Origin: Myxococcota bacterium
GTDB lineage: Bacteria; Myxococcota_A; UBA9160; JAFDET01
Assembly: GCA_028278065.1 (NCBI GenBank)
Contig: JANQFA010000095.1
Coordinates: forward strand, 3,349 to 67,348
Length of the DNA stretch: 64,000 nt
Direction of reading: 5' to 3'
The notes beneath the pieces were generated by a model. The model searched no databases. It had not been told where the DNA came from and saw nothing but the letters and a program-made list of their open reading frames with translations. A program made the translations under genes and the position numbers. Positions 1-27,460 of the stretch are shown here, piece after piece (positions within the stretch are counted from its first letter, which is position 1; each line of letters begins with the position of its first letter).

Positions 1-2878
1 TCTCACTTGAGAATCGCCACGACCGTTCGTAGGCGGAGGACCCAAACCGAAAACGTCGGCGATCGCTGACAAGCCACCGATACGCGAGATCGGCCGCGCG
101 CTCGGGTGCAGCCGCGAGGATCATGGCTACCAGGCGTTGACACGTCAGGAGGTCAGACGTCGCCAGTTGTCTGACTTGCGTCTCGAACTGCCGGAAATCG
201 ACGTTCGCCAGCCCTCCGCAGGCGCACGCAACCGCCTCAAGCATGGCTTCCGCGGAGTCGGGCCGAGTTCGATGCAGGCCATCCCCCCAGATGCGGTCCT
301 CAACGAAGGTAGTGCCATCGCCTTCCCCTACTTGTCCCGCGGCAGCCAGCTCTGCGATCGCTGGCACCAGCCGACGCCACACCACCGAGGAGTGAGTGGG
401 CGCCGCTTTCCTAACAACATCAAACTCGACGCCATCGAGCCCGACCAGTTCGCCTCGCCCTGTCCGTTCACCGAAGACGGAATCGGAAGTGTCGTCGGCT
501 GTCAGATGGGCCGCCGTGCTACGCACTGCTACCTCCAGCGCCTCTACGCACCACTCAGGACGGAACTCGGCAAGCTTGCGCCAAGCGATCGAGAAGCGAG
601 ATATCTCTCCGCGGGCCAGTGCGCGTAGTTGCAGCTCGAACATCTCCCTTGAGTCGTGCGCATCGGTGAACGCAACAGCGTTTGCCACTCGCTCGGGCCA
701 AGGTGACGGTTCATTCTCAAGCTCCTTGAGGGCACGCGCCACACGATCGCCACGTTCGCCTGCGAAGCGCCGGCAGATCCAGAGAGCACGATCTTCAGCT
801 TCTTTCGAGCCAGATCCGAGCCATTGCGCAAGGCTCCCGCGCTCGTCCAAGGCATCCAGCCACCCTGCCGATCGGAGCAGCACGAGTTCCTCGATGTGGG
901 CGGTCCACTCTTCGCGAGCTAGGTACCGCAGTACCAGCTCGACCTCGCGGTCCGAAGGCTGAGCTGCGCTACCGAGAACCTGCAACGCCAAGTGCTTGAA
1001 GTGGAATCGAACTCGATCATGTCCGAGGATCGCATCGATCCCTTCCAGGAACTCCCGTGGGTCCTCCTCACGGAGTAGTTCCAGGCCAAGACGCAGTTGC
1101 TCACGACGAAAGAGCGTCTGTTCCTTCTCAAGCAGCCAGCCCGCAAAGGTCGCGCGGCCAGCGTGCGCGGAATCGATGGCACGCCGCGCTACCTGGTAGT
1201 CGAAGTAGCTCTGATGGGCAAAGCGTAGGCGCCTGCCCCCGCGCGCCAGGATCCCCAGTGCTAGAAGCGCCTCCCCGACACGACCCTCGGCGCCAAGAAT
1301 GCTCTCTGGAGCATCTAGACGCTCCTGTGCGCTCATGAAGTCAATCAACCTCCCGATCGCTTCAAGCGCGTGGGCACCTGGCACGCCAAGCTCCTCAAGT
1401 TTCGACAGCCGGTCGTGCCAAAAAGCGCGAAGAAGGTCAGAGGCTGTTGAGAAGTCGCGAGGCCTGGCCCCATCGGCTCCGAGCTTACTCCACAGTGAGA
1501 GTCCCAACGGCGAGGACAGGACGCGCCGCTGAACCCGTGAGAGCGCGTCGTAGTTGCCGCCCAACGTGGCGATCCGCTCCCTGAGTTCATCTTCATCCAG
1601 AGGAGGGACTCTGATCTCCTCGCAATCCTGACCCTTGACCCACGCTCGAACTTGCGGATCGGTCTCCCAGTCGAATCCCCTACAAGCGACTACGACTCGG
1701 ATGTTGTCGAACGCCAACGCGTCTTGGATGACCTCTTTGCAGGCCTCCCACGCCGCTGGGCCGTGGCCGCTGGTCCATCGGATCGCGTCCAGCTGATCGA
1801 GAATGAGGACCGCGGGTCGCTCGCCTGCTAGCGCATGCAGGCAGAGCCCTGGCGATTCCGGCAGATCGCACCCATCGATTCCGAATCGTCTTGCACTTAT
1901 CGAGGGCATCCGCGCATCGAGCCTGATCGGTAGACATCGAACGCCCCGGGCTCTGAGGTCACGGAGTACGCTGAGGAGAACACAGCTCTTCCCAGAGCCA
2001 GCATCTCCGAGGATGGCGACAATCCGGGCACCGCGTTCCTCTTGAAGAACAGCAGCAACGCGGTCGGCGGGCACTCTCCGCAACAGGTCGTCGGCGATCA
2101 GCTCCGGCGCAAGCGACTCATCGAATTCGGAGCAGAGCGCCTCGATCCTGACGGCGAGACTTGCGTCAGCGGCGAGATCACGGCGACGTACGCCGCTGAC
2201 CTTCAGCCTTTTCGAAAGCCATTCATCTGTCAACGGACGCGCCCAAGACGTGCTCTCAGAAATCAGGTCTCTTAGAACCGCAAGGCCTTGAGACGGCTCG
2301 CCTTCGAACAAAAGGCGAGCGAGCGACAAGGGAAGACTCTCTCCCGAGCGCCCAGGCGGGAACACCTCGGCGCTCGAGCGGGTCAACAGGTCGAAGGCCT
2401 CGTCGCGATGCTCTGGGTTCTGAGGATCAAGCCCAAGCGCGGTGCAGAACTGATGGTGGGACTTTCGAGGCCCTTGAGTAGCCTGGACCTGAACACTGAA
2501 GAACCGGCGTGAATCGCCGCCAGCGCCTTGGGCTCGCTCACAGAGCCCACGGAAGTCAGGAGCCGGATCGCCCGATATGAACGCGTAGCGGAAGCTCGAA
2601 TCGCGCCGAAGCTGATCTCTGAGGTGGCGTAGAACGCCCCTACTTCGGAGGTCGGCTACCGACCAGCTCCCTTTGGACGCGTTGCCCCTCTTGCACTGCT
2701 GCGCCTCCTGTTGACCATCGGCGTAGACAACCCACAGATCGACACCTTCTTCAGCTTCGCCGAGGGGCTCGATCTCGACGGACTTCAGGCTACCCGCAAG
2801 TACATGCAGGAGCTGGAGGGCGACCCATGTTCCCTCGAACCGGTTCCCAAGCTTGTCAGCGCGCCCCCCAGGCTCCAC
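1..2878 (-). CDS. PD-(D/E)xK (Cap4/DUF4297-like) nuclease fused to a P-loop STAND-type NTPase with a long helical C-terminal region. Partial: the 3' end runs off the window, with at least 959 codons visible.
   Basis: Absent from the ORF track because no stop is reached before position 1. My hand translation of the minus strand is open from the TAG at 2902-2900 down to nt 1. The start is GTG at 2878, preceded by GGAG with a 7-nt spacer. The N-terminus reads GNRFEGTWVALQLLHVLAG..IEPLGEAEEGVDLWVV..EAQQCK, a D..ExK nuclease core. Walker A is ILGDAGSGKS (nt 2008-1985) and Walker B is VLILDQLD (nt 1810-1787). A winged-helix-like FAHQSYFDYQVAR lies at ~nt 1221-1183. No other minus-strand ORF in this frame appears in the track. 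Confidence 0.75.
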   Translation of the reverse strand, partial: MEPGGRADKLGNRFEGTWVALQLLHVLAGSLKSVEIEPLGEAEEGVDLWVVYADGQQEAQQCKRGNASKGSWSVADLRSRGVLRHLRDQLRRDSSFRYAFISGDPAPDFRGLCERAQGAGGDSRRFFSVQVQATQGPRKSHHQFCTALGLDPQNPEHRDEAFDLLTRSSAEVFPPGRSGESLPLSLARLLFEGEPSQGLAVLRDLISESTSWARPLTDEWLSKRLKVSGVRRRDLAADASLAVRIEALCSEFDESLAPELIADDLLRRVPADRVAAVLQEERGARIVAILGDAGSGKSCVLLSVLRDLRARGVRCLPIRLDARMPSISARRFGIDGCDLPESPGLCLHALAGERPAVLILDQLDAIRWTSGHGPAAWEACKEVIQDALAFDNIRVVVACRGFDWETDPQVRAWVKGQDCEEIRVPPLDEDELRERIATLGGNYDALSRVQRRVLSSPLGLSLWSKLGADGARPRDFSTASDLLRAFWHDRLSKLEELGVPGAHALEAIGRLIDFMSAQERLDAPESILGAEGRVGEALLALGILARGGRRLRFAHQSYFDYQVARRAIDSAHAGRATFAGWLLEKEQTLFRREQLRLGLELLREEDPREFLEGIDAILGHDRVRFHFKHLALQVLGSAAQPSDREVELVLRYLAREEWTAHIEELVLLRSAGWLDALDERGSLAQWLGSGSKEAEDRALWICRRFAGERGDRVARALKELENEPSPWPERVANAVAFTDAHDSREMFELQLRALARGEISRFSIAWRKLAEFRPEWCVEALEVAVRSTAAHLTADDTSDSVFGERTGRGELVGLDGVEFDVVRKAAPTHSSVVWRRLVPAIAELAAAGQVGEGDGTTFVEDRIWGDGLHRTRPDSAEAMLEAVACACGGLANVDFRQFETQVRQLATSDLLTCQRLVAMILAAAPERAADLAYRWLVSDRRRFRFGSSAYERSWRFSSE

Positions 2879-3258
2879 GGTTCCACTCCGCGTGTCGTCC
2901 TAGGCCGACTGTAAGAGACTTGAGAGGAGCTGTCTGCGGCGAAGCAGAGAGCGTCTGCCTCGAACCACGACCGTACAGGCTACTGGAGCTGGCGCGCTCC
3001 CCATCCGCCCGCGCCGATTTGACGACAAGGCGACGGACGCGTTGCATCGCTGCTTCCACGTTGGGCAGGCAATGGCTTTGCCCTCCGAGTCACCCCGGGG
3101 TTGCCACATCGCCACAGCGAGCATCCGTGCAGTCGTTCGCGCGACCCCGCTTGGCTGCGTGAATCAAGCGCTCAGGCATCACCGTGGGCGCATGCGAGCC
3201 GCCCCCTCAGACGGCTTCAGGGAGCGCTAGCTTTCTGTTCACCCCGGATCACGCGTCG

Positions 3259-3738
3259 CTAGGCCGGCCGCATCTTCTCACGGAGAGCCGCGCGAAACTG
3301 AAGCCGCACCGTCTTCGGGCTCTTGAGGTGGTGAGGCTCCCGATTTCGATAGGCCCTAACCTCCGTGTGAGCGTAGTTGTCCCAGTCTGGATCGTGAACC
3401 GGCTCGAAGGAAAAAGTGTCGATCTGTCCCCTGCGTTCCTTCGCCGTCACGACGAACGTGATGTTTCCGGGGATATCGCGCATCCCGAACTTCCAGGCCT
3501 CCCACCTTCGACGGTTGCCAACTATGACGCTTCGGGGCCCGCTGTACTTCGACCGATTTACAGACATATCTGGAAACCGGATCGCCGAGATATTCGGCAA
3601 GCGCTCATACCCATCACCGTCGATCTGATCCGGATCGATAGCGTGGTAGAATTCCTCATCACGTGCGAACCGGCTGTCCGGCCCTCTCCGTCGAAGCCAG
3701 TTAACTGAGGAAGTCGCGAAGTTGATCAATCGCTGCAC
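3259..3738 (-). CDS. Hypothetical protein (159 aa), third gene of a small overlapping three-gene cassette
   Basis: ORF track entry. It overlaps the upstream gene by 29-38 nt (GTG 3738 or TTG 3729). The composition is protein-like, with motifs SVNRSKYSGP and HDPDWDNYAHTEV, plus RNREPH (Rx4H). Third codon positions are AT-rich, unlike the rest of the window. The antisense ORF 3184..3708 looks less protein-like. Confidence 0.6.
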   Translation of the reverse strand: MQRLINFATSSVNWLRRRGPDSRFARDEEFYHAIDPDQIDGDGYERLPNISAIRFPDMSVNRSKYSGPRSVIVGNRRRWEAWKFGMRDIPGNITFVVTAKERRGQIDTFSFEPVHDPDWDNYAHTEVRAYRNREPHHLKSPKTVRLQFRAALREKMRPA

Positions 3739-4213
3739 GCAGCCTGCTCTCTTCGCTCTCGATGCACTCGACGGCAGGCTGGCGCCCCGCTTCGGAGAAG
3801 ACTAGCCCGACCGATCCATCGTTGAGGAACTCGACGGCAGCGTACTTCGAGGGAGCACGGAAGTTAAACGCGACGCCCTCTTCAACGGACGGCGAGATGC
3901 TCCGAGGTCGGAGGTTGGCCGCGAACAGCAGCCGCGTAAAGCACTCGGCAAACAGCAGAGTCCGAGCGCTAGGAGGACTGGCGCCCTGCGTGTCCCAATC
4001 CGGGGGAAGCACAGCCAGTTGTCGCAGCTTGTCGAGCGCAGCCTTCTGCCAGTCGACACCAGGCGCTAGGTCCCGATAGGACGCACTGCCTCGACGAGAA
4101 TCGAAAGACCGAACGCTCAGGATGACATCTCGACGTACGTCCGCGTCGGTCGTCATCTCCGTTAGCGACAACAGCGGCAGGTGGACCTCATGCGTTGCTG
4201 AGGGGCTAGACAC
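3701..4213 (-). CDS. Hypothetical protein (170 aa), middle gene of the cassette
   Basis: ORF track entry. The GTG start at 4213 overlaps the stop of the upstream gene (GTGTCTAG, 8-nt overlap), which suggests translational coupling. It carries the motif LPPDWDTQGASPPSARTLLFAECF. Codon usage is atypical for the window (TCT, TTT, GAT, CGA). Confidence 0.6.
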   Translation of the reverse strand: MSSPSATHEVHLPLLSLTEMTTDADVRRDVILSVRSFDSRRGSASYRDLAPGVDWQKAALDKLRQLAVLPPDWDTQGASPPSARTLLFAECFTRLLFAANLRPRSISPSVEEGVAFNFRAPSKYAAVEFLNDGSVGLVFSEAGRQPAVECIESEESRLRAAIDQLRDFLS

Positions 4214-4556
4214 CGCTATCAGTCCTCGCTGCGTTCAGTTGCTCGATTCTCTTCTCTAGCCAGTCTCTCAACGCGGTGGCCGTCGGGAGACTCAGGATCG
4301 CGGTTACCTCGCACTCACGAACCGGCCCATCGCGACCCAGGCGTTCGTCCGTCAGCTCGTCGCCAACCTGACCGGACGAGACCTCGTGCGTTGTGCGCTG
4401 GGGAATCGGCTGCCGCTCTGCGTAGAGGGTCATCTGGACAAACCCGTGCGGCGTGATGCCGCCGTGAGCACCGTCCACGTGGATCACGCGGTAGTCGGCG
4501 CTCTTGACGAAATGGAAGTTGATCCTCTCGGGGTGGTCAGCCACCTGTTCCTCCAA
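4206..4556 (-). CDS. Hypothetical protein (112-116 aa), first gene of the cassette
   Basis: ORF track entry with a TTG start at 4556. A better start is GTG at 4544, 6 nt after GGAGG. Beta-rich N-terminal half (INFHFVKSADYRVIHVDGAHGGITPHGFVQMTLY) with a C-terminal helix. It is faintly DUF3467-like in layout only, and I make no family call. Confidence 0.6.
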   Translation of the reverse strand: MEEQVADHPERINFHFVKSADYRVIHVDGAHGGITPHGFVQMTLYAERQPIPQRTTHEVSSGQVGDELTDERLGRDGPVRECEVTAILSLPTATALRDWLEKRIEQLNAARTDSGV

Positions 4557-4732
4557 GCCGGCGCGACGGAAGCTCCTTGGGCCACCGCCGATCTGGCTCT
4601 GTCTTTTCCCGCTGTCACGCTACCCCCTCGGGATCGGCGCGACAAAGTCGAAGAAAAAGCGAATAAGAACCCGGTCCCAGGCAAGTCTAGACCTTCTCGT
4701 CCGAGGGGATCTTTGGTGAGTCCCCGAGGGGG

Positions 4733-4984
4733 GGGGCTGTTCAGGATGCGCCTATATCGGAGAGCGCCGTATCTCGCCCAGGGCATCGCTGTGTGGGGGG
4801 GTACCCCCTTTCGACTCTCCTCCGTGGGGGGGCCGTATAGGGCCGTGGGGCCGTGCTGGGTGGGGCTGGGTGGGGCCCTGTGCGGGCCCCTGGGAGCGCG
4901 CAGACGCAAGCTCGCGCTACTTCTTGCCCTTCCGGGATTCTGGCAGTCTTGGGGTCAGGGGTTCGATCCCCCTCAGCTCCACCA
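4733..4984 (+). ncRNA. tmRNA-like (ssrA?) structured RNA with a tRNA-like 3' end. Alternatively, only the last ~30-40 nt are a tmRNA/tRNA 3' fragment left as an island att site.
   Basis: T-arm AGGGG-TTCGATC-CCCCT (4957-4973), then the 3' acceptor strand CAGCTCC (4974-4980), then ACCA (4981-4984). GGGGCTG at 4733-4739 can pair with the acceptor strand, including a G3:U70 wobble, which is the Ala/tmRNA identity pair. The interior is full of G/C-complementary hairpins (GGGGGGGTACCCCC, GGGGCCCTGTGCGGGCCCC, AGCGCG..CGCGCT). A strong terminator hairpin follows. No cloverleaf can be drawn and no canonical tag ORF was found. About 252 nt is short for a tmRNA. Confidence 0.45.
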
Positions 4985-4993
4985 CTCTCTTCG

Positions 4994-5022
4994 CGGGGTT
5001 GGCGAGATGCTCGCCAACCCCG
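4994..5022. terminator. Bidirectional stem-loop terminator
   Basis: A perfect 12-13 bp GC-rich stem, CGGGGTTGGCGAG / CTCGCCAACCCCG, with a 3-nt loop. It lies 10 nt after the CCA end on the plus strand and 7 nt after the TGA of the convergent giant gene on the minus strand. Confidence 0.6.
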
Positions 5023-5028
5023 TCGTTC

Positions 5029-8000
5029 TCAAGGGCCCGTCCGCCGCAGCTTGAAGACTCCGACGTCCTTGTCGATGTAGACGTCGGCACTCGGCGGATC
5101 GTCGTAGCGCATCCCAAAGCAGCTCCCGCCGCCTCCCGGGTGGAACTGAACGTCGTACGTCTGCGCCCCGATCCCGACCGAGGGCTGGAACGCCGGTATC
5201 GGCCGATCGGAATCGGCCCCGACCTCGGCGCCCTTGGCCACCAGGGTCAACTTCGACTTGCCCGGGGTGGTCGCGTCCGAACGGAGCAGGACGGACCGGA
5301 TACCGTCCGCAGCGGCGGCCTTGTCTACGTAGCGGTAGAGCTTGCCCGGGATCACCTTGATCCAGTTGGGCGACCCCGGGGGGATCGCCAGCTGGGTACG
5401 CAGCGCGTCGTCCGCATAGAAGCAGAGCCCCGCGCCGCCGCCCACGGGGTCACCGAACTCGTTGAAGTCCGTAACTCCACCCCGCAGCCACTTGAAGACC
5501 AGCTTCGCGTTGTCGCCGTTGACCCCGCCGTCCGCCGGCTCGAGGCGATCCTGCATGATCGTCAGGTTGAGGGCGTCGGTCCGACAGGTGGCCGGAACGA
5601 GGGGGCACGCGGGTGCGGCGGCGGACGAGCAGTCCGCACTGCACCCATCGCCGTCGATCTGGTTCCCGTCGTCGCAGGTCTCTCCCGCATTGACGATGCC
5701 GTTTCCGCAGGACGGAAGTGTGCAATTGGGATCGCACGCGTCCCCGCCGGCCAGGTTGCCGTCGTCGCACTCCTCCTGGATCTCCACGGCTCCGTTTCCG
5801 CAGGTCTCCAGATCGCAGGCATCACCGACGCCATCCAGATCGGCGTCGGCCTGCTCCACGTTGGGGGCATCCGGGCAGTTGTCCAATGCGTCCGGCACCT
5901 GATCACGATCCCGATCCGCGACGCCCAGGACGGCGATGTCCTCGACGCACGTGGCGTCGGGGTCGCAGCCCTGTTCGGCGGTGGGCTTGTCCAGGTCGCA
6001 GGTGCGCCCGGTGTCTCGAACGCAGCTGCCGATCGTCGCCTCCGGGTCGGGATCGAAGCAGAACTCGCCGGCACCGCACGTACCCGGCGCTCCAGGTGTG
6101 CATGACGCCGTCGTGTCGACCACGCAACGTCCTTCCGTGACGATGACCTGGTCGCTGCCCTCGCCCGGATCGTCCTCACTCGGGGTTTGCAGCGGATCGC
6201 TGCCCGTCCCGTCGTCGGGATCCGTCACCTCGGCCACCGGCCGCGTCTCGCCGGACACCACGTTGTAGACCTGCACCAGGACGTCGTCCTGGTCGCCGTC
6301 TTCGTTGAGATCCTCGCCCTGGTCTCCCTCGAAGGTGAGGAACCGCACGGTTCTGCTGGAAACCCGGTAGGGATTCCGCGGCTCACACTCGGACAGCCGG
6401 CAGGGAGTGACCGCCTGCCCCGTGTTGAGGAGCTGACCGCCGATCATGTCATACACCTGCAGGCCGTCGTCGCAGCAGTCGCCGTCCCCGTTCAGGTCGC
6501 ACTGGGAGATCGCGACGCAGCCCGCAGGCGCGGAGCAGTCCGGGGAAGGAACCGCCGCATCGCAGAAGTCGAGCTCGTGGCTGCGAAACGCCAGGAGATC
6601 CTCTCCCATCACGAACTCCTCGGCGGGCTGGCGGCGCCCGCTGCCATCCTCGATGGGAAGCAGGCTCAGGGCGGCAGCATCGTAGAGCTGCACGTAGCGG
6701 TCGGCGGCATCGCCATCCGAGGTCGCGTCCAGGCCAGCCTGTTCGGCTTCCGGCGTGATGAACGCCACCAGCTCCCCCGAGACGTCGATCGAATCCGCCG
6801 CCTGACCGACGTTGTCCCAGGAAAACGGCGGAGCGTCGATGTTGGCCGAGCACGGCAGGAACGGCGTCACACCCAAGGGAAGGACGTGAAGCACCCGATC
6901 CGATGCGTCCGCGTCGCCGTTCAGGAACGCCCCGCCCGCGTCGGCCTCCGGCACCAGGCCTGCAATGAAGGTGCCGGACATCGCCACGTCGCTGGCCGCG
7001 CACTGCAGGTTCTGGACGCCACCAGCCGTCGCAAGGTGCACCACCTGATCGTCGATGTCGCCATCACCGTTGAAATTCACACCGCCAGGGCACGCGCCCC
7101 CGCCCCCGGCTCCCTCCGGCCGGAGGAACGCCGCGCTCCCCGCCGCGACGGCGACGCGCCCTGCGGGACACAGGTTCGTCACCACCCCAGGTGGCCCCAC
7201 CGTCGTGTCGAGAGACCTCAAGACGGTGTCGTCGAGGTCTCCGTCGAAGCTCAGATCAGCCCCGAAGTCGCTCGGATCCGGACCGCGGACGAACACGTCC
7301 GAATCCATGTTGCCATCGCCCCCGACCAGGTTGGTTGCTCCGCTGTCGAACACGATCGAGCGACCGTCCGAAGCAAAGGGAGGGACGGCCCTCAGAAAGC
7401 TGGCGGCGTCCGCCTCGTTGCCTGCGGTGTCCAGGCTCATTCGTGTCGTGAGTCCGCTCGCGCGGTCGTGAACGAAGACGTCGTTCACGCCGTTGGTGTC
7501 ACCGTCCACGAGGTTGGTCGCGGCGCTGTAGAACGCGATGAACCGGGAGTCCGGAGACAAGTGAGGCGCCTCGCTCTGCCCGTCCGCCTCTTCGCCTGAC
7601 GAGCCCACGCTGATCCGGGTGGTGGCGATCCCGCCCGGCTCATCGAAGACCCCGTTCTCGTCGGCATCGCGATCATGGAGAAAGATGTCCTGCACCGAGT
7701 TGGTGTCGCCCGCCACGAGGTTGTTCGAGTCGTCGCTGAACACCACGAACCGCCCGTCGCCGGAGATCTGCCCGACCGAGCCCTGATCGTTCCCCTGCTC
7801 GCCGGTCGAGCTCACGCTCACCATGATGATCTCGATCTCTCCGGGGTCGTAGCCATCTCCCTCGTCGTCGAAGATCCCGTCTTCGTCGGCATCGCGATCG
7901 TGGACGAACATGTCGAAGAGACCGTCGGTATCGCCGGCGACGAGATTGGTCGCGAAGCTGCTGAACAAGACGTAGCGGCCGTCGTGAGAGACGCCGTGGC

Positions 8001-10431
8001 CCACCGAACGGTTGTTGCCGCCATTCCCGGCCGCATCGATGCTGATGCGAATCGTCTTGACCTCGCCGGGATCGATGATCCCGTTCCCTTCCCCGTCGAA
8101 GAGCCCGTCTCCGTCCGCGTCTCGGTCGTGAAGGAACGCGTCATCGGGAACGGCGACCAGGCCCCAGTTGCCCTCTCCCGGGGCGAGGTCGTTCGCCCGG
8201 CTCGTGATCACCACGAAGCGGCCGTCGGGCGAGATGTCGGAGGCGAACGAGAAGCCGCCCCCGTCGACGGCCTCGCTTCCATCGGACTGGACGCTCACGC
8301 GAACGGTCGCGATGCCACCCGGCTGGCCCTGCTCATCATAGATGCCGTCCTGGTCGAAGTCGCGGTCGTGAACGAAGGCGTCCCAATCGGCGTTCGTGTC
8401 CCCCGGAACGAGGTCGTCGAAGTCGGCCGAGAAGGCCACGAAGCGACCATCCGCCGCGAATCCGCTTCCCGCAGCACCCACACCGTTGCAACACCCGGGC
8501 CCAAACTCCTCGCCTTCGTCTCCGTTCGAGTCGACACTCACCCGGACGGTCGTGCCGGCTACCCGGTCCCGGATGAACACGTCGCGCACCTGGTTCGTAT
8601 CGCCGGCAACGATGTTGGTGGCGAACGAGGTAAAGGCCAGGTCGCGCCCCCCCCGGCCGAGGAAGCCCGTCGTGCTGAAGTCGTTCCCCTCGCCACCCGC
8701 ATCGGGCAGGCTCAGACGCTCCGTGAGCTGGGTGGCTTCAGCGGCCTCCGGGGTGCGAAAGAAGACGGTGCCGTCGGAGAGCGCGAGCGTCCGGCCGTCG
8801 ATGACGGGGTCGCTGGCGGCGGTGAGCGGGCCGGCAGGCGACAGCTCCCCAACACCAAGGGCGAAGCTCTTCAAGATCGGGTCGAAGACGTTGGCGTTCG
8901 CGTTCGTGTCGGTGTCGCCCTGCCCTGGCTCGGACTCGAGAAACGCCATGACCGACCCCTCGACCGCCACGGCGGGGAAACGGAACGGCCCCTCCTGGGT
9001 CCGCACGGCGGCGCGCCCGTCGCTCCCACCGTCCCCGATGGGCTGAAGGATGCCCGTCGTGCGGTCCCTGAGGGTGACGACGAAATCTCCCGGCTCGCCT
9101 CCCAGAGGGTCCCCGTCGGCATTGCGGTCGACGCCATCCACGTTCTCCGAGATCACGAAGGCGAAGTTGCCTGCGCCCTCCACGAGGCCTTCCAGCGGAA
9201 CCGGATCGTCGAGAACGGCCGTGTACTCCCCTCCGCTACCCAGGAGTACGACCGGCCCGATTCCGGCGTCGTAGCGGTCGCTGAAATCGAAGAGCTCATT
9301 GCTGCAGACGCTGGAGCTGCACTCGCCGTCGACCGTGCACGCCTTGCCCTCGTCGTCACCACCCACGCAGCCGCGTCGCGCGATCCGGATCACGCCTCGG
9401 GGTGCGTCCACCGATCCGAACAGCTCGGCGTCACTCACGGCCGGGTTGGCCAGGGCCGTGAAGACGGGAGGCAGGATGATCCCGCCGGGCGAGTGGGAAG
9501 AGATGAATCCATCGCCGGGGATCGTGACGGGCTGACCCGGAAGGTCCGTATCGGCATCCACATTCGTGGCTCCCCGGGCGAGCTGGGGGATCGGAACCCC
9601 GCCGATGCGCAGCAGGATCCCCGTGTAGTCCATCGGCGCCAGGATGTTGCCCGCAGCGTCCGTGGTGAAGTGCACCTCCGTAATGCCGGGGTTCGCGATC
9701 ATCGCCTCGATGTCGTTGGGGGGCGGCAACGCCACGAAGTGCCCGAACCGTTCGGCCAGATCGGCAGGGCTGGTTCGACAGGTACCGTCGAGACGGAAGA
9801 GCTCGTCCACGCAGGCGACCACGCCATGGGTCGACGTGTCTCCACCCAGATCGGCGCAGCGCTGGGTAGCCAGCCCGCACTGCAGCGGCGCGTTCCGCCG
9901 CGTCACGACGATCTTGGCCGGTCCGGCGAGAGTTCGGTCGTCGTTCACGCCACCGAGCCGATCATCGCTGTCGGGGAAGCGGAACCGGAGTTCGTTCAGG
10001 CTGGGAACGACCAGATCGATGGATCCTCCGGCGTTCAACTCGACGCACTCGGCGGTACCGCCGGGCCCGAGATCGGTATTGCAGTTGCTCAGGTCGAGGC
10101 CGGCACAGCTCTCCGCAAGGACGATGGCATTGGCTGCACCGTTGGGAGGCGTGAAGATCACCGACACGCGGTAGTCGTCCGCCGCGTCGCCATCCAGGTC
10201 GAGATCGACGAAGCCGGTGGACGTCTCGTCGCAGGCCGGCGGCCTCACGGCGACGCTGACGAAGTCATCGGGACTGGCAAAGGGCCGATTGAGGCTTCCC
10301 AGCGCACCGCGGAAATCACTCGACGCGGCGGGGATCACGTCGCAGATCGCGGAGGCATCAGGCGCGAAGGCCAGGAGCACGAGGGCGACGAGAAGCGAAC
10401 ACCTGGCGGAGCGAGCGAGCGGGCGATCCAT
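5029..10431 (-). CDS. Giant secreted multidomain protein (~1800 aa): a 7-blade PD40/TolB-like beta-propeller with Ca-binding-type inserts, thrombospondin type-3-like repeats and Myxococcus-type Cys-rich repeats
   Basis: ORF track 5029..10479. ATG at 10431 follows GGAGG and gives the signal peptide [28 protein letters not shown]. There are seven repeats of the type FxxFxSxAxNLVxGDTNxxxDVFxHDR. [11 protein letters not shown] inserts are present. [27 protein letters not shown] is TSP3-like. CGNGxxExxEeCDDGN..DGCsxxC occurs twice. Confidence 0.9.
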
Positions 10432-10718
10432 GGAGCCTCCACGCAGCATATCCGGGACAGCCGGCTGCACGGCGTTCAACGAAAGAGCATCGGGCGCTCC
10501 TCCTGTATATCACACAGCTCGGTGTAAGGACGTGAAGTATTTCACACGTGCCCTGCTCGCCCGAACGCCGTGTCCCGCGGAGCAACGATCCGTCTCCGGG
10601 TAATCACCGAGCCCCCCCAAGGGGCCAGATCCACCGGCGATGGGAATGGTGCCCACCTGATGATCTACAATCCGGCGGCCTGTTCACCGGACCCCTGGTT
10701 CGACGTCGTGGAAGGGGC

Positions 10719-24817: not shown

Positions 24818-26113
24818 CTACCGCCCGCGATCCCAGACCGCGAACAACGCGAGACCGGCGAACACGAGCCCGGAAGCCACACCGAACATCGCGGGATAGC
24901 CGAAGCCCCGCACGATGATCCCGAGTGCCGGCGGTCCCAGCAGCGCACCGGCGTCGAACACGGCCGTGTAGGCCGCCATCGCGGCGCCGACCTCCGCCGG
25001 ACGGGCGCGCGTCACCACCAGGGCGTTGAGGATCGGGTTTGCCATCCCGTGCCCCAGCCCGCACAGGACACCGGCCGCTGCGAGGGCTGTCGCCCCGTCG
25101 ACGAAGGCGAGGAGGGCCAGGCCCGCGCCGAGCAGCGCGAAGGCAGGAGCCATCACGCGCTTCGGCCCCGCGCGATCGGGAAGCCAGCCAAAGCCTACAC
25201 GGATCGCGATTGCCGCGAGCGAGTAGGCGCTGAAGAAGAGGCCCATGCTCCCGAAGTCCACCTCCGCCAGGAACGTCTTGAGGAACGTGAAGGGTCCGGC
25301 GATCGCGGTGGCGAAGACGGTGCCCATGAACCAGAGGGGGACCAGGTCGCGCTGGCGCACGGCCGCGAGGAAGCCCCGGGAGGACTCGCCGGGCTCCACG
25401 ACCGGCTTCGCCTCGCGCAGCGGCAGCGCCACCAGGAGCGAGACCACGGCCAGCGCGATCGACGCGGCGAAGAGGTCGCCGTACGCGCCCCGCGCCAGGA
25501 TCAGGTCGCCGAGGAGCGGTCCCAGCGAGATGGGCAGGATCCCGAAGACGCCGAACAGCGCCAGGCCCTGGGTACGCCGCGACGCCGGAACGATGTCCGC
25601 GGCGTACGTGAAGTAGCCCGCGAAGAGCATCGACTCCGCGAGACCGTGGAGCACGCGCACCGCCACCAGCCAGGGACCGATGGCGTCCACCGTCAGGTAC
25701 ATCGTGAGCGTCGCCACGTTGAGGGCGTTGCCGTACAGGATGACGGGTCGCCGCCCGCGGTCGTCCATGGCGCGCCCCACTGCCGGACGGACGAGGAGCG
25801 CGGCTCCGGCGGTGAGCGCCCAGAGGACGCCGATCGTCACCTCGTCGGCGCCCAGATCCTGGAGGAATCCCGGAAAGTGGAGGTACAGATTGAACGCGAG
25901 ACCCTGGACCAGCGTGCCGGCGCACACGAGCACGAACGCGCGGGTCACGAGCGGATCGCCCGGGTCTGCAGGTGCGCGGGTGCCGGCGGGATCGCGCTGG
26001 ACTGCAGACGCGCGGGTGCCGGCGGGATCGCGCCGGCCTGCAGACGCGCGGGTGCCGGCGGGATCGCGCCGGCCTGCAGGCGCGCGGGTGGCGGCGGGAT
26101 CGCGCTTCTCCAC
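24818..26113 (-). CDS. MFS transporter (start ambiguous: GTG 26113 or GTG 25948)
   Basis: Twelve-TM-like MFS sequence. The 55 N-terminal codons of the maximal ORF are encoded by the 36-bp tandem repeats. GTG at 25948 (VTRAFVLVCAG..) would leave the repeats in the leader. Confidence 0.85.
   Translation of the reverse strand: MEKRDPAATRAPAGRRDPAGTRASAGRRDPAGTRASAVQRDPAGTRAPADPGDPLVTRAFVLVCAGTLVQGLAFNLYLHFPGFLQDLGADEVTIGVLWALTAGAALLVRPAVGRAMDDRGRRPVILYGNALNVATLTMYLTVDAIGPWLVAVRVLHGLAESMLFAGYFTYAADIVPASRRTQGLALFGVFGILPISLGPLLGDLILARGAYGDLFAASIALAVVSLLVALPLREAKPVVEPGESSRGFLAAVRQRDLVPLWFMGTVFATAIAGPFTFLKTFLAEVDFGSMGLFFSAYSLAAIAIRVGFGWLPDRAGPKRVMAPAFALLGAGLALLAFVDGATALAAAGVLCGLGHGMANPILNALVVTRARPAEVGAAMAAYTAVFDAGALLGPPALGIIVRGFGYPAMFGVASGLVFAGLALFAVWDRGR
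25966..26109. repeat. 36-bp tandem repeat, 4 copies
   Basis: CTGCAG recurs at 25966, 26002, 26038 and 26074. The unit is CTGCAGACGCGCGGGTGCCGGCGGGATCGCGCCGGC. Each unit contains a 7-bp GC hairpin (GCCGGCG..CGCCGGC). Confidence 0.9.
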
Positions 26114-27250: not shown

Positions 27251-27460
27251 CGAGCCGGACGACGCTCGCGGGCGCCGCCAGCCGTGGAGTCGTCTGGCGA
27301 CGATCGCGGGCGCCGCCGGCCGTGGAGTCGTCTGGCGACGATCGCGGGCGGCACCGACCCTGGGGTCGTCTGGCGACGATCGCGGGCGCCGCCAGCCGTG
27401 GAGTCGTCTGGCGACGATCGCGGGCGGCACCGACCGTGGGGTCGTCTGGCGGGCACCCGC
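27251..27460. repeat. 38-bp tandem repeat, ~5.5 copies, in a divergent intergenic region
   Basis: GTCGTCTGGCGACGATCGCGGG recurs at 27289, 27327, 27365, 27403 and 27441. It is followed by one of two alternating 16-mers (CGCCGCCAGCCGTGGA or CGGCACCGACCCTGGG). Each conserved core folds as GTCGTC-TGGC-GACGAT. The period is not a multiple of 3. Confidence 0.9.

Follow-up and report, generated by a model that had tools for sequence, protein, structure and literature searches.

The window analyzed here is a stretch of 64,000 nucleotides from a Myxococcota bacterium (assembly GCA_028278065.1, contig JANQFA010000095.1, positions 3,349 to 67,348 of the forward strand). At its left end lie four co-directional genes on the minus strand, which a first-pass annotation had read as a horizontally acquired defense cassette next to an RNA locus resembling transfer-messenger RNA (tmRNA). 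The layout that it described was confirmed: a gene for a large nuclease-NTPase starts with GTG at 2878 and is truncated by the window edge, and after a gap of 380 nt (2879-3258) follow three small overlapping open reading frames (ORFs), here called orfC, orfB and orfA. Additional sequence to the left was obtained from a Logan contig (L001, 8,115 bp), which adds 3,264 bp beyond position 1 and matches window positions 1-4851 with 2 mismatches, at 4823 and 4828. The large protein, read from the window and L001 together, has 1622 aa. Our analyses suggest that these genes lie at the right-hand end of a genomic island in a transfer RNA (tRNA) gene and represent two independent units, an Avs7-family gene and the orfABC operon. 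The features that carry this interpretation are:

1 to 2878, minus strand: predicted antiviral STAND gene of the Avs7 family, the first 959 of 1622 codons, with the remainder on L001
2879 to 3258, no strand: 380 nt of non-coding DNA separating orfABC from the Avs7 gene, with no credible ORF and no promoter or terminator consensus match
3259 to 3738, minus strand: orfC (159 aa), belonging to a large unnamed family that is marked by the motifs PDxSVNRxKYS and HxP...NYxHSEVR
3701 to 4213, minus strand: orfB, 170 aa, upstream partner of orfC, with a conserved C-terminal domain of ~110 aa and the motifs WDxYGAxPP and PSVEGGI
4206 to 4556, minus strand: orfA, 112 aa if started from the GTG at 4544 and 116 aa if started from the TTG at 4556; heads the module but is not always present in it
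4557 to 4939, no strand: non-coding island end with G-rich imperfect repeats, joining the tRNA fragment at 4939/4940
4940 to 4984, plus strand: last 45 nt (3' end) of a tRNA-Ala(GGC) gene (tRNA positions 32-76), identical in 45 of 45 positions to intact genes at other loci, among them L122, L045 and L029
4994 to 5022, plus strand: perfect 13-bp hairpin, a terminator-like inverted repeat directly after the CCA

The visible part of the island comprises 8.2 kb (window positions 1-4939 and ~3.26 kb of L001) and includes one border only. Its GC content is 0.62, compared to ~0.70 for the remaining window, and codon usage differs from that of the host as well. The GC content at third codon positions (GC3) was 0.67-0.78 in the island genes and 0.895 ± 0.046 in 25 host genes, and the codon adaptation index (CAI) was 0.40-0.51 in the island genes and 0.748 ± 0.088 in the host genes, which places the five island genes ~3-4 standard deviations (SD) under the 25 host genes in both measures. 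The tetranucleotide distance to the host was 0.032-0.035 for the island, ~5 SD off the host mean of 0.0148 ± 0.0035 and beyond the host maximum of 0.0237. The A/T-richer third codon positions, which had been estimated by eye in the first-pass annotation, are confirmed by these computed values.

The fragment at 4940-4984 runs from the anticodon loop (CUGGCAG) through the 3' strand of its stem, the variable loop and the T-arm to the acceptor strand and the CCA, and its start coincides exactly with the 5' border of that loop. Intact tRNA-Ala genes for comparison were found by a genome scan with the 25-nt 3' end of the fragment, which gave matches in many lineages, and all loci checked with ARAGORN among the matches listed were 76-nt tRNA-Ala(GGC) genes. 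In the alignment, hairpins of the type GGGGTTA... occupy the position after intact tRNA-Ala genes that is equivalent to the position of the hairpin at 4994-5022. The anticodon loop is reportedly a canonical crossover position for tyrosine-recombinase elements, and the partial tRNA copy at the island border starts at precisely this sublocation. A 3' tRNA segment beginning at the anticodon loop, followed by its native downstream flank and accompanied by a compositional switch, corresponds to the kind of junction that is classically left when a tyrosine recombinase integrates an element, so that positions 4940-4984 likely represent the displaced native 3' half of the tRNA gene at an att-type junction. 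Anticodon-to-3'-end copies of a tRNA at the border, foreign composition and defense cargo are features that the locus shares with tRNA-integrated islands that have an anticodon-loop crossover; unlike in such islands, one border is visible here, and an integrase and a second repeat were not seen in the 8.2 kb. During integration, the insertion would have displaced the 3' half of the native tRNA-Ala with its own terminator still behind it, and a restored tRNA gene, a second 45-nt copy and a tyrosine integrase would be expected at the left end of the island. Composition and tRNA fragment together support the first-pass view that the DNA was horizontally acquired and adjoins a tRNA-type integration site. 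We consider it probable that window positions 1-4939, together with no less than 3.26 kb to their left, are the right-hand end of an island in the tRNA-Ala(GGC) gene of a high-GC host, with an Avs7-family gene and a separate orfABC module as cargo.

The large protein had been read as a nuclease-STAND NTPase of the anti-phage kind. This architecture was supported, yet it is not an uncharacterized one, because the family profile matches the published Avs7. Avs7 consists of a Cap4 nuclease, a STAND NTPase and a bilobed TPR sensor, and it binds the phage major capsid protein, helped by EF-Tu in one clade (Lee et al., Nature 2026, PMC13581612). Activated Avs7 forms an asymmetric tetramer that cleaves double-stranded DNA, and a single gene is all that is needed for defense (PMC13581612). 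The characterized protein of Salmonella enterica (SeAvs7, PDB 9N00/9N01/9YIX) has 1523 aa (PMC13581612). The following parts were assigned in the window, all bounds of domains being approximate:

2189 to 2878, minus strand: Cap4-type PD-(D/E)xK nuclease domain, ~aa 1-230, from conserved residues and the SeAvs7 alignment
959 to 2086, minus strand: STAND NTPase module, ~aa 265-640, from invariant motif residues
1985 to 2008, minus strand: Walker A motif GDAGSGKS, aa 291-298, from the homologue alignment
1787 to 1798, minus strand: Walker B motif DQLD, aa 361-364, from the homologue alignment
1679 to 1681, minus strand: R400, from the homologue alignment
2 to 958, minus strand: first part (aa 641-959) of the C-terminal sensor, all-helical in an AlphaFold2 (AF2) model; the sensor runs on to aa 1622 outside the window

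Homologues of the large protein were numerous (254 at E ≤ 0.001). Among the best 120 of the 254, nearly all had 1500-1630 aa and were collinear over their full length; they originated from Planctomycetota, Nitrospirota, Syntrophia, Omnitrophota, Bacillus and Paenibacillus and were annotated as hypothetical or AAA/NACHT proteins. A family profile built from an alignment of 42 homologues matched SeAvs7 in the PDB (9n00_A/9n01/9yix) with an E-value of 3.5e-45 in two collinear stretches, of which the first covers the Cap4 domain, the NTPase and the WHD of SeAvs7 and the second the sensor. Conservation was scored on the same alignment of 42 homologues. In the nuclease domain, K9, G11, E15, W18, E37, C62 and K63 were invariant and D47 and Q61 were conserved in at least 90% of the sequences. 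The D...QCK segment aligns with D46...QCK inside the Cap4 domain of SeAvs7, identifying an N-terminal Cap4 PD-(D/E)xK effector, and no match of the large protein to the Pfam family Cap4_nuclease was obtained at E ≤ 1. In the NTPase, G291, G294, G296, K297, S298, D361, Q362, L363, D364, R400 and D403 were invariant, and the motifs align with the P-loop (T291, K292), D358 and R395 of SeAvs7, as in a STAND NTPase core with Walker A, Walker B and sensor arginine.

Other searches pointed to the same type of protein. Pfam gave sub-threshold matches only, to AAA_22, nSTAND and NACHT and, at aa 1255-1309, to HEAT. The AF2 model of residues 1-959 had a predicted local distance difference test (pLDDT) score of 87.7 and was all-helical from about residue 556. 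With this model, Foldseek returned Avs4 (8dgf) at the top with an E-value of 7.9e-13, and also NLRP9, NLRC4, NLRP3, SAMD9 and Avs5, from a library copy that did not contain 9N00. Avs4 and Avs5 of the Avs1-5 (AVAST) group and eukaryotic nucleotide-binding leucine-rich repeat proteins (NLRs) are thereby among the best structural matches and share the logic of effector, STAND module and repeat sensor. The large protein differs from Avs1-5 in having no sequence-level match to their PADLOC models and in its sensor, which appears to relate to that of Avs7 and not to the portal-binding sensor of Avs4. The best PADLOC match was PDC-M54A (E-value 6.8e-21, aa 288-574), and a second model matched at aa 1243-1312 in the HEAT region. 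The PDC-M54A profile of ~1621 aa equals the protein in length; however, only ~290 residues of the NTPase and 70 residues of the repeat region align, and no conserved partner gene was found here. PDC-M54 is presumably catalogued as a multi-gene candidate, judging from PADLOC naming, and our literature search on PDC-M54 found no papers.

Some results speak against a close relationship to SeAvs7. In the sensor stretch, where profile positions 1042-1405 align with SeAvs7 1021-1378 (envelope to 1522), the i-Evalue was only 1.8e-4, and a single-sequence phmmer search with the large protein gave no match to SeAvs7, so that the link to Avs7 rests on the family profile. In addition, contacts to EF-Tu appear not to be kept. 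The EF-Tu-using clade of Avs7 contacts EF-Tu through Q999, D1003, K1044, H1048 and D1059 (PMC13581612). At the two of these five positions that were inspected by eye, K1044 and H1048 of SeAvs7 are replaced by D and R in the large protein and by E and N in the family consensus. As the interface residues are not conserved at these positions, co-option of EF-Tu is not expected, and the large protein probably falls outside the EF-Tu-using clade. Compared with SeAvs7, it shares the three-part architecture, the D...QxK nuclease signature, Walker A and B with the arginine, a large helical sensor, the organization as a stand-alone gene and a similar size (1622 versus 1523 aa); it differs by the distant relation, the non-conserved EF-Tu contact residues and its occurrence in a high-GC environmental bacterium. 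Judged by profile homology, we file the large protein as a putative member of the Avs7 family. By analogy to SeAvs7, it would be autoinhibited and ADP-bound at rest, and its sensor, presumably bilobed, may capture newly made major capsid protein of the HK97 fold. Nucleotide exchange would then be followed by tetramerization via the NTPase and Cap4 domains, and indiscriminate cutting of double-stranded DNA would lead to abortive infection. Both the triggering by capsid protein and the integration of the island by an integrase are steps that we infer.

The three small ORFs had been described as not assignable to any family. This holds for Pfam, NCBIfam, PADLOC and PHROGs, but they turned out to be members of real, conserved families. 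In Pfam, NCBIfam and PHROGs, nothing above noise was obtained with orfA, orfB or orfC, and in PADLOC orfB weakly matched PDC-M32A (E 0.002). Profile searches with the three families against the PDB found nothing, and a word-indexed search with orfB returned only orfB itself. Gene callers place the start of orfA at the GTG at 4544, which is preceded by a GGAGGA ribosome-binding site. The genes overlap by 8 nt (orfA/orfB) and 38 nt (orfB/orfC). The NCBI record gives orfC only 74 aa, from an ATG start; a homologue with 57% identity keeps the N-terminal 85 residues, which supports the 159-aa form over the 74-aa call. Homologues of orfA, with 30-56% identity, were found upstream of orfB at further loci (L124, L126, L135, L137/L138, L139), giving six distinct contexts including the window. 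Among the family members scanned with Pfam, the sole match was a weak one of a single orfA member out of six to DUF3467 (E 0.016).

For orfC, three homologues were found, the best with 57% identity over the full length, and a metagenome scan with the orfC alignment added 18 further loci. A HMMER search over 1.84 billion representatives detected orfC relatives in at least 1,212 clusters (50% identity) at E ≤ 1e-3 and in 626 at E ≤ 1e-10. None of ten relatives that were checked had a name, and one was labelled "hypothetical protein". Across 92 members of the orfC family, E28 and H124 were invariant and F24, L30, P56, S59, R62, P90, H115, P117, N121, E126 and R149 were conserved in at least 90%. 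This pattern of conserved residues suggests that orfC encodes an enzyme. Pfam searches with the 92 members and a sequence search of the PDB gave no match.

Whenever a locus extended far enough, a homologue of orfB was detected by tblastn directly upstream of orfC, the two genes usually overlapping, and the GC content of these loci ranged from 0.39 to 0.70. orfB and orfC thereby form an invariant, adjacent and co-directional pair of small genes with a sporadic distribution. The gene in front of the pair belonged to at least four unrelated types: an orfA-type gene, a DUF6941 gene, a gene for a ~270-aa protein, genes for unrelated proteins of 218 or 251 aa, or no such gene at all. The ~270-aa protein is presumably TIGR04255-like; no papers were found in a literature search on TIGR04255 and DUF6941. 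Neighbours of the pair included RelE/XRE, HicB and a DACNV-DAC protein. At two loci (L134:880-9515 and L130:6282-9216), orfB-orfC is inserted between a SNF2 helicase carrying NOV_C and a DUF1156 N6/N4 methylase, in a version with a long orfB (274-277 aa) and a first gene for ~272 aa; here the pair is a module nested inside another defense-type operon. At one locus, it lies between ORFs that were read by eye as rnhA and cysS. tRNA genes occurred within 1-6.5 kb in three orfC loci.

On these grounds, we tentatively propose that orfB-orfC with its interchangeable first gene constitutes a new, widespread family of toxin-antitoxin-like or anti-phage defense systems, in which orfC would represent a new enzymatic effector fold and the first gene would set input or specificity. 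orfC would act as the enzymatic effector through its conserved Ser/Arg/His/His/Glu residues, orfB would be its cognate binder or neutralizer, and the variable first gene could be an input or regulator. Several features are shared with type II and tripartite toxin-antitoxin systems: small, overlapping, co-directional genes, an invariant pair, sporadic occurrence among taxa, location in islands and toxin-antitoxin or defense genes as neighbours. Unlike these systems, orfABC has no homology to known families and no recognizable DNA-binding domain and is absent from plasmid and phage collections. Moreover, an interchangeable first gene as in orfABC is unusual for toxin-antitoxin modules.

A number of observations weigh against this proposal. 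The AF2 prediction for orfC, made with four sequences, was poor (pLDDT 53), and a Foldseek search with that model is meaningless. In Pfam, NCBIfam, PADLOC, PHROGs and the PDB, no match of orfABC to the families or folds of known toxins and antitoxins exceeded the thresholds. The orfC family was absent from IMG/VR viral contigs, from 72,556 plasmids and from 50,697 phages, which is unusual for classical toxin-antitoxin modules. The toxin-antitoxin-like role is one that we infer solely from how the gene pair behaves and where it occurs: the pairing is invariant, the genes overlap, the distribution is sporadic and the neighbourhoods fit. We regard this role as possible rather than as established, since it finds no support in a fold or family and since the absence from plasmids and phages is atypical. 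The alternative that orfABC is a housekeeping, regulatory or stress operon or serves another maintenance function of mobile elements, outside toxin-antitoxin and defense biology, appears somewhat unlikely. It would account for the lack of similarity to any known toxin, antitoxin or defense family, for the absence from plasmid and phage collections and for the locus where the pair is flanked by apparent housekeeping genes. It is difficult to reconcile with the sporadic distribution, the wide range in GC content, the variable first gene and the tight overlaps. Likewise, RelE/XRE, HicB, the SNF2-NOV_C helicase, the DUF1156 methylase and, at the present locus, Avs7 are atypical neighbours for a housekeeping operon.

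The origin of the whole block can be judged further from its left part. Beyond the window, two features were assigned on L001:

L001:6945-7700, strand not given: p251, a 251-aa ORF directly after Avs7, GC3 0.71, island-type codon usage, singleton cluster
L001:7700-8115 (~2.85-3.26 kb left of position 1), minus strand of L001: C-terminal fragment similar to NOV_C/DUF3883 (IAVEVKAT...EVSANEWRAAREKKGDYTLCLV), at the contig end

No family match was found for p251 in Pfam, NCBIfam, PADLOC or PHROGs. The NOV_C-like fragment aligns with the NOV_C domain of the helicase from locus L134 (pairwise E 2e-6). An in-frame stop or change of frame comes before it, and the fragment may represent a defense gene in decay or an artefact caused by the contig ending there. 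Against an integrated island it can be held that an integrase, a second copy of the 45-nt repeat and an intact tRNA-Ala were all not seen, with a visible island of only 8.2 kb. Accordingly, the tRNA fragment might be an old scar unrelated to the cargo, in which case the low-GC block would have arrived otherwise, by transposition or by recombination into a decayed site, or would be a non-mobile remnant. The disrupted appearance of the NOV_C-like ORF at the end of L001 and the indication that Avs7 moves as a single gene would also fit this scenario. We nevertheless consider it improbable because the compositional switch coincides with the tRNA fragment, the break lies exactly at the anticodon loop and the native terminator has been kept. 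The 5' half of tRNA-Ala was not found in the window and L001 together (~67 kb), nor was any similar sequence within 7 mismatches or a further copy of the 45 nt. An empty integration site was sought among 120 tRNA-Ala loci, and in none of them were the flanking host genes located beside the tRNA gene.

Within the probable island, the Avs7 gene and orfABC behaved as separate units. The first-pass annotation had treated all four genes as one cassette in which the nuclease-NTPase has undescribed small-gene partners, a reading that the comparison of loci did not sustain: Avs7 homologues and the small ORFs were never found together in the loci examined. At the DNA level, the closest Avs7 locus (L002) is similar only from 15 nt ahead of the Avs7 start codon to a point within the gene, and neither orfA, orfB, orfC nor p251 was detected by tblastn beside the two closest Avs7 homologues (L002 and L003, with 65% and 45% identity). 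The third homologue context has a different gene layout, so neighbours differed in 3 of 3 contexts and no partner of Avs7 was conserved. Conversely, 21 distinct orfC loci, covered over up to 8 kb, contained no homologue of Avs7. As orfABC never occurs with Avs7 homologues and the converse is also true, we regard them as two independent units side by side in the island, an arrangement that is usual for unrelated units in defense islands. That the four genes form a single defense cassette, with the small proteins as obligate partners of the nuclease-NTPase (regulators, antitoxins or adaptors), is very unlikely. The same orientation, the closeness and the common foreign composition would be in line with it, whereas the 380-nt gap, the fact that resemblance to the closest Avs7 loci stops at the gene borders in both DNA and protein, and the lack of co-occurrence argue against it. 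Avs7 itself defends as a single gene (PMC13581612).

The RNA element next to the island does carry a T-arm, an acceptor strand and a CCA at 4940-4984 on the plus strand, as had been noted, but it is a fragment of tRNA-Ala(GGC) and not tmRNA-like. Its distance from the cassette, previously given as ~180 nt, also needs correction, since the element starts ~385-395 nt from the start codon of orfA and ~208 nt from position 4732, where the first-pass annotation had ended the cassette. ARAGORN reported neither a tRNA nor a tmRNA in the window, and Rfam gave no match over the window at gathering thresholds. At a relaxed threshold, the Rfam tmRNA model (RF00023) scored 30.9 bits against a gathering score of 47 (E 1.7e-10), with a convincing alignment only for the T-arm and the acceptor end. 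A G3:U70 acceptor is common to tRNA-Ala and tmRNA, which explains the earlier impression of a tmRNA, and the hairpin after the CCA explains a weak match to tmRNA_permuted. tmRNA is not known to carry an anticodon arm. That the element is the 3' remnant of ssrA, the tmRNA gene, and the island ssrA-integrated can hardly be maintained: the acceptor end CAGCUCCACCA with its G3:U70-compatible strand and the T-arm, which tmRNA and tRNA-Ala have in common, and the low Rfam E-value would agree with it, but the score lies below the gathering score, ARAGORN called no tmRNA, and the element contains a complete anticodon loop and 3' anticodon-stem strand with 45/45 identity to tRNA-Ala(GGC). Two other candidates were rejected, a hidden intact tRNA or tmRNA starting from GGGGCTG motifs (~4732 or 4862) and a group I intron interrupting the anticodon loop: the sequence showed no D-arm, by eye no tag frame, no Rfam match and nothing resembling the 5' half within 7 mismatches.

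The non-coding island end between orfA and the tRNA fragment (4557-4939) presumably contains the promoter of orfABC, and Rfam found no family in it. From 4716 to 4880 it consists of G-rich imperfect direct repeats of the types GTGGGGCC[G/C]TG and GGGGGGGC. The Logan assembly ends at 4851 amid these repeats, and this breakage and the mismatches at 4823 and 4828 could result from the repeats or from strain variation at the junction. In three metagenome-assembled genomes (MAGs), two complete tRNA-Ala(GGC) genes per genome were observed, 219-226 nt apart in the two MAGs of Desulfobacter type and separated by 4.6 kb in the third, from Bdellovibrionales (L033, L038, L049). These doubled genes are full duplicates, unlike att-type fragments. 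On the host side of the junction, the first gene is the following:

5029 to 10479, minus strand: first host-type gene, outside the island, encoding a secreted repeat protein of 1816 aa with Pfam DUF4215, GC3 0.84

The protein has many Asp-rich repeats and a C-terminal Cys-rich DUF4215 repeat. A 4-kb chunk of its gene was the most atypical chunk of the host part (tetranucleotide distance 0.027), probably because of the repeats. The genes to the right of it are envelope and polysaccharide genes with a GC3 of 0.8-0.95. Further into the window, two tandem arrays were noted, one at 25936-26105 with 4.7 copies of 36 nt and one at 27260-27451 with 5.1 copies of 38 nt (88% matches), the 38-nt period not being a multiple of three.

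For the annotation of this genome, our results mean that the RNA element is to be recorded as an att-type remnant of tRNA-Ala, with the tmRNA reading dropped, and that the apparent four-gene cassette consists of two unrelated units. The "hypothetical" protein of 1622 aa would be, by homology, a capsid sensor of the Avs7 family. This extends the Avs7 family to high-GC environmental bacteria, where it probably works without EF-Tu as a co-factor. As the Avs7 part belongs to a known, recently published family, the residual novelty lies in orfB-orfC, a sizeable unnamed family with strongly conserved polar residues, a mobile genomic behaviour like that of toxin-antitoxin or defense systems and a modular first gene. 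Should orfB-orfC serve neither defense nor addiction, it would be one further conserved unknown family, whereas as a defense or addiction system it would bring in a new family of effectors and illustrate the swapping of inputs.

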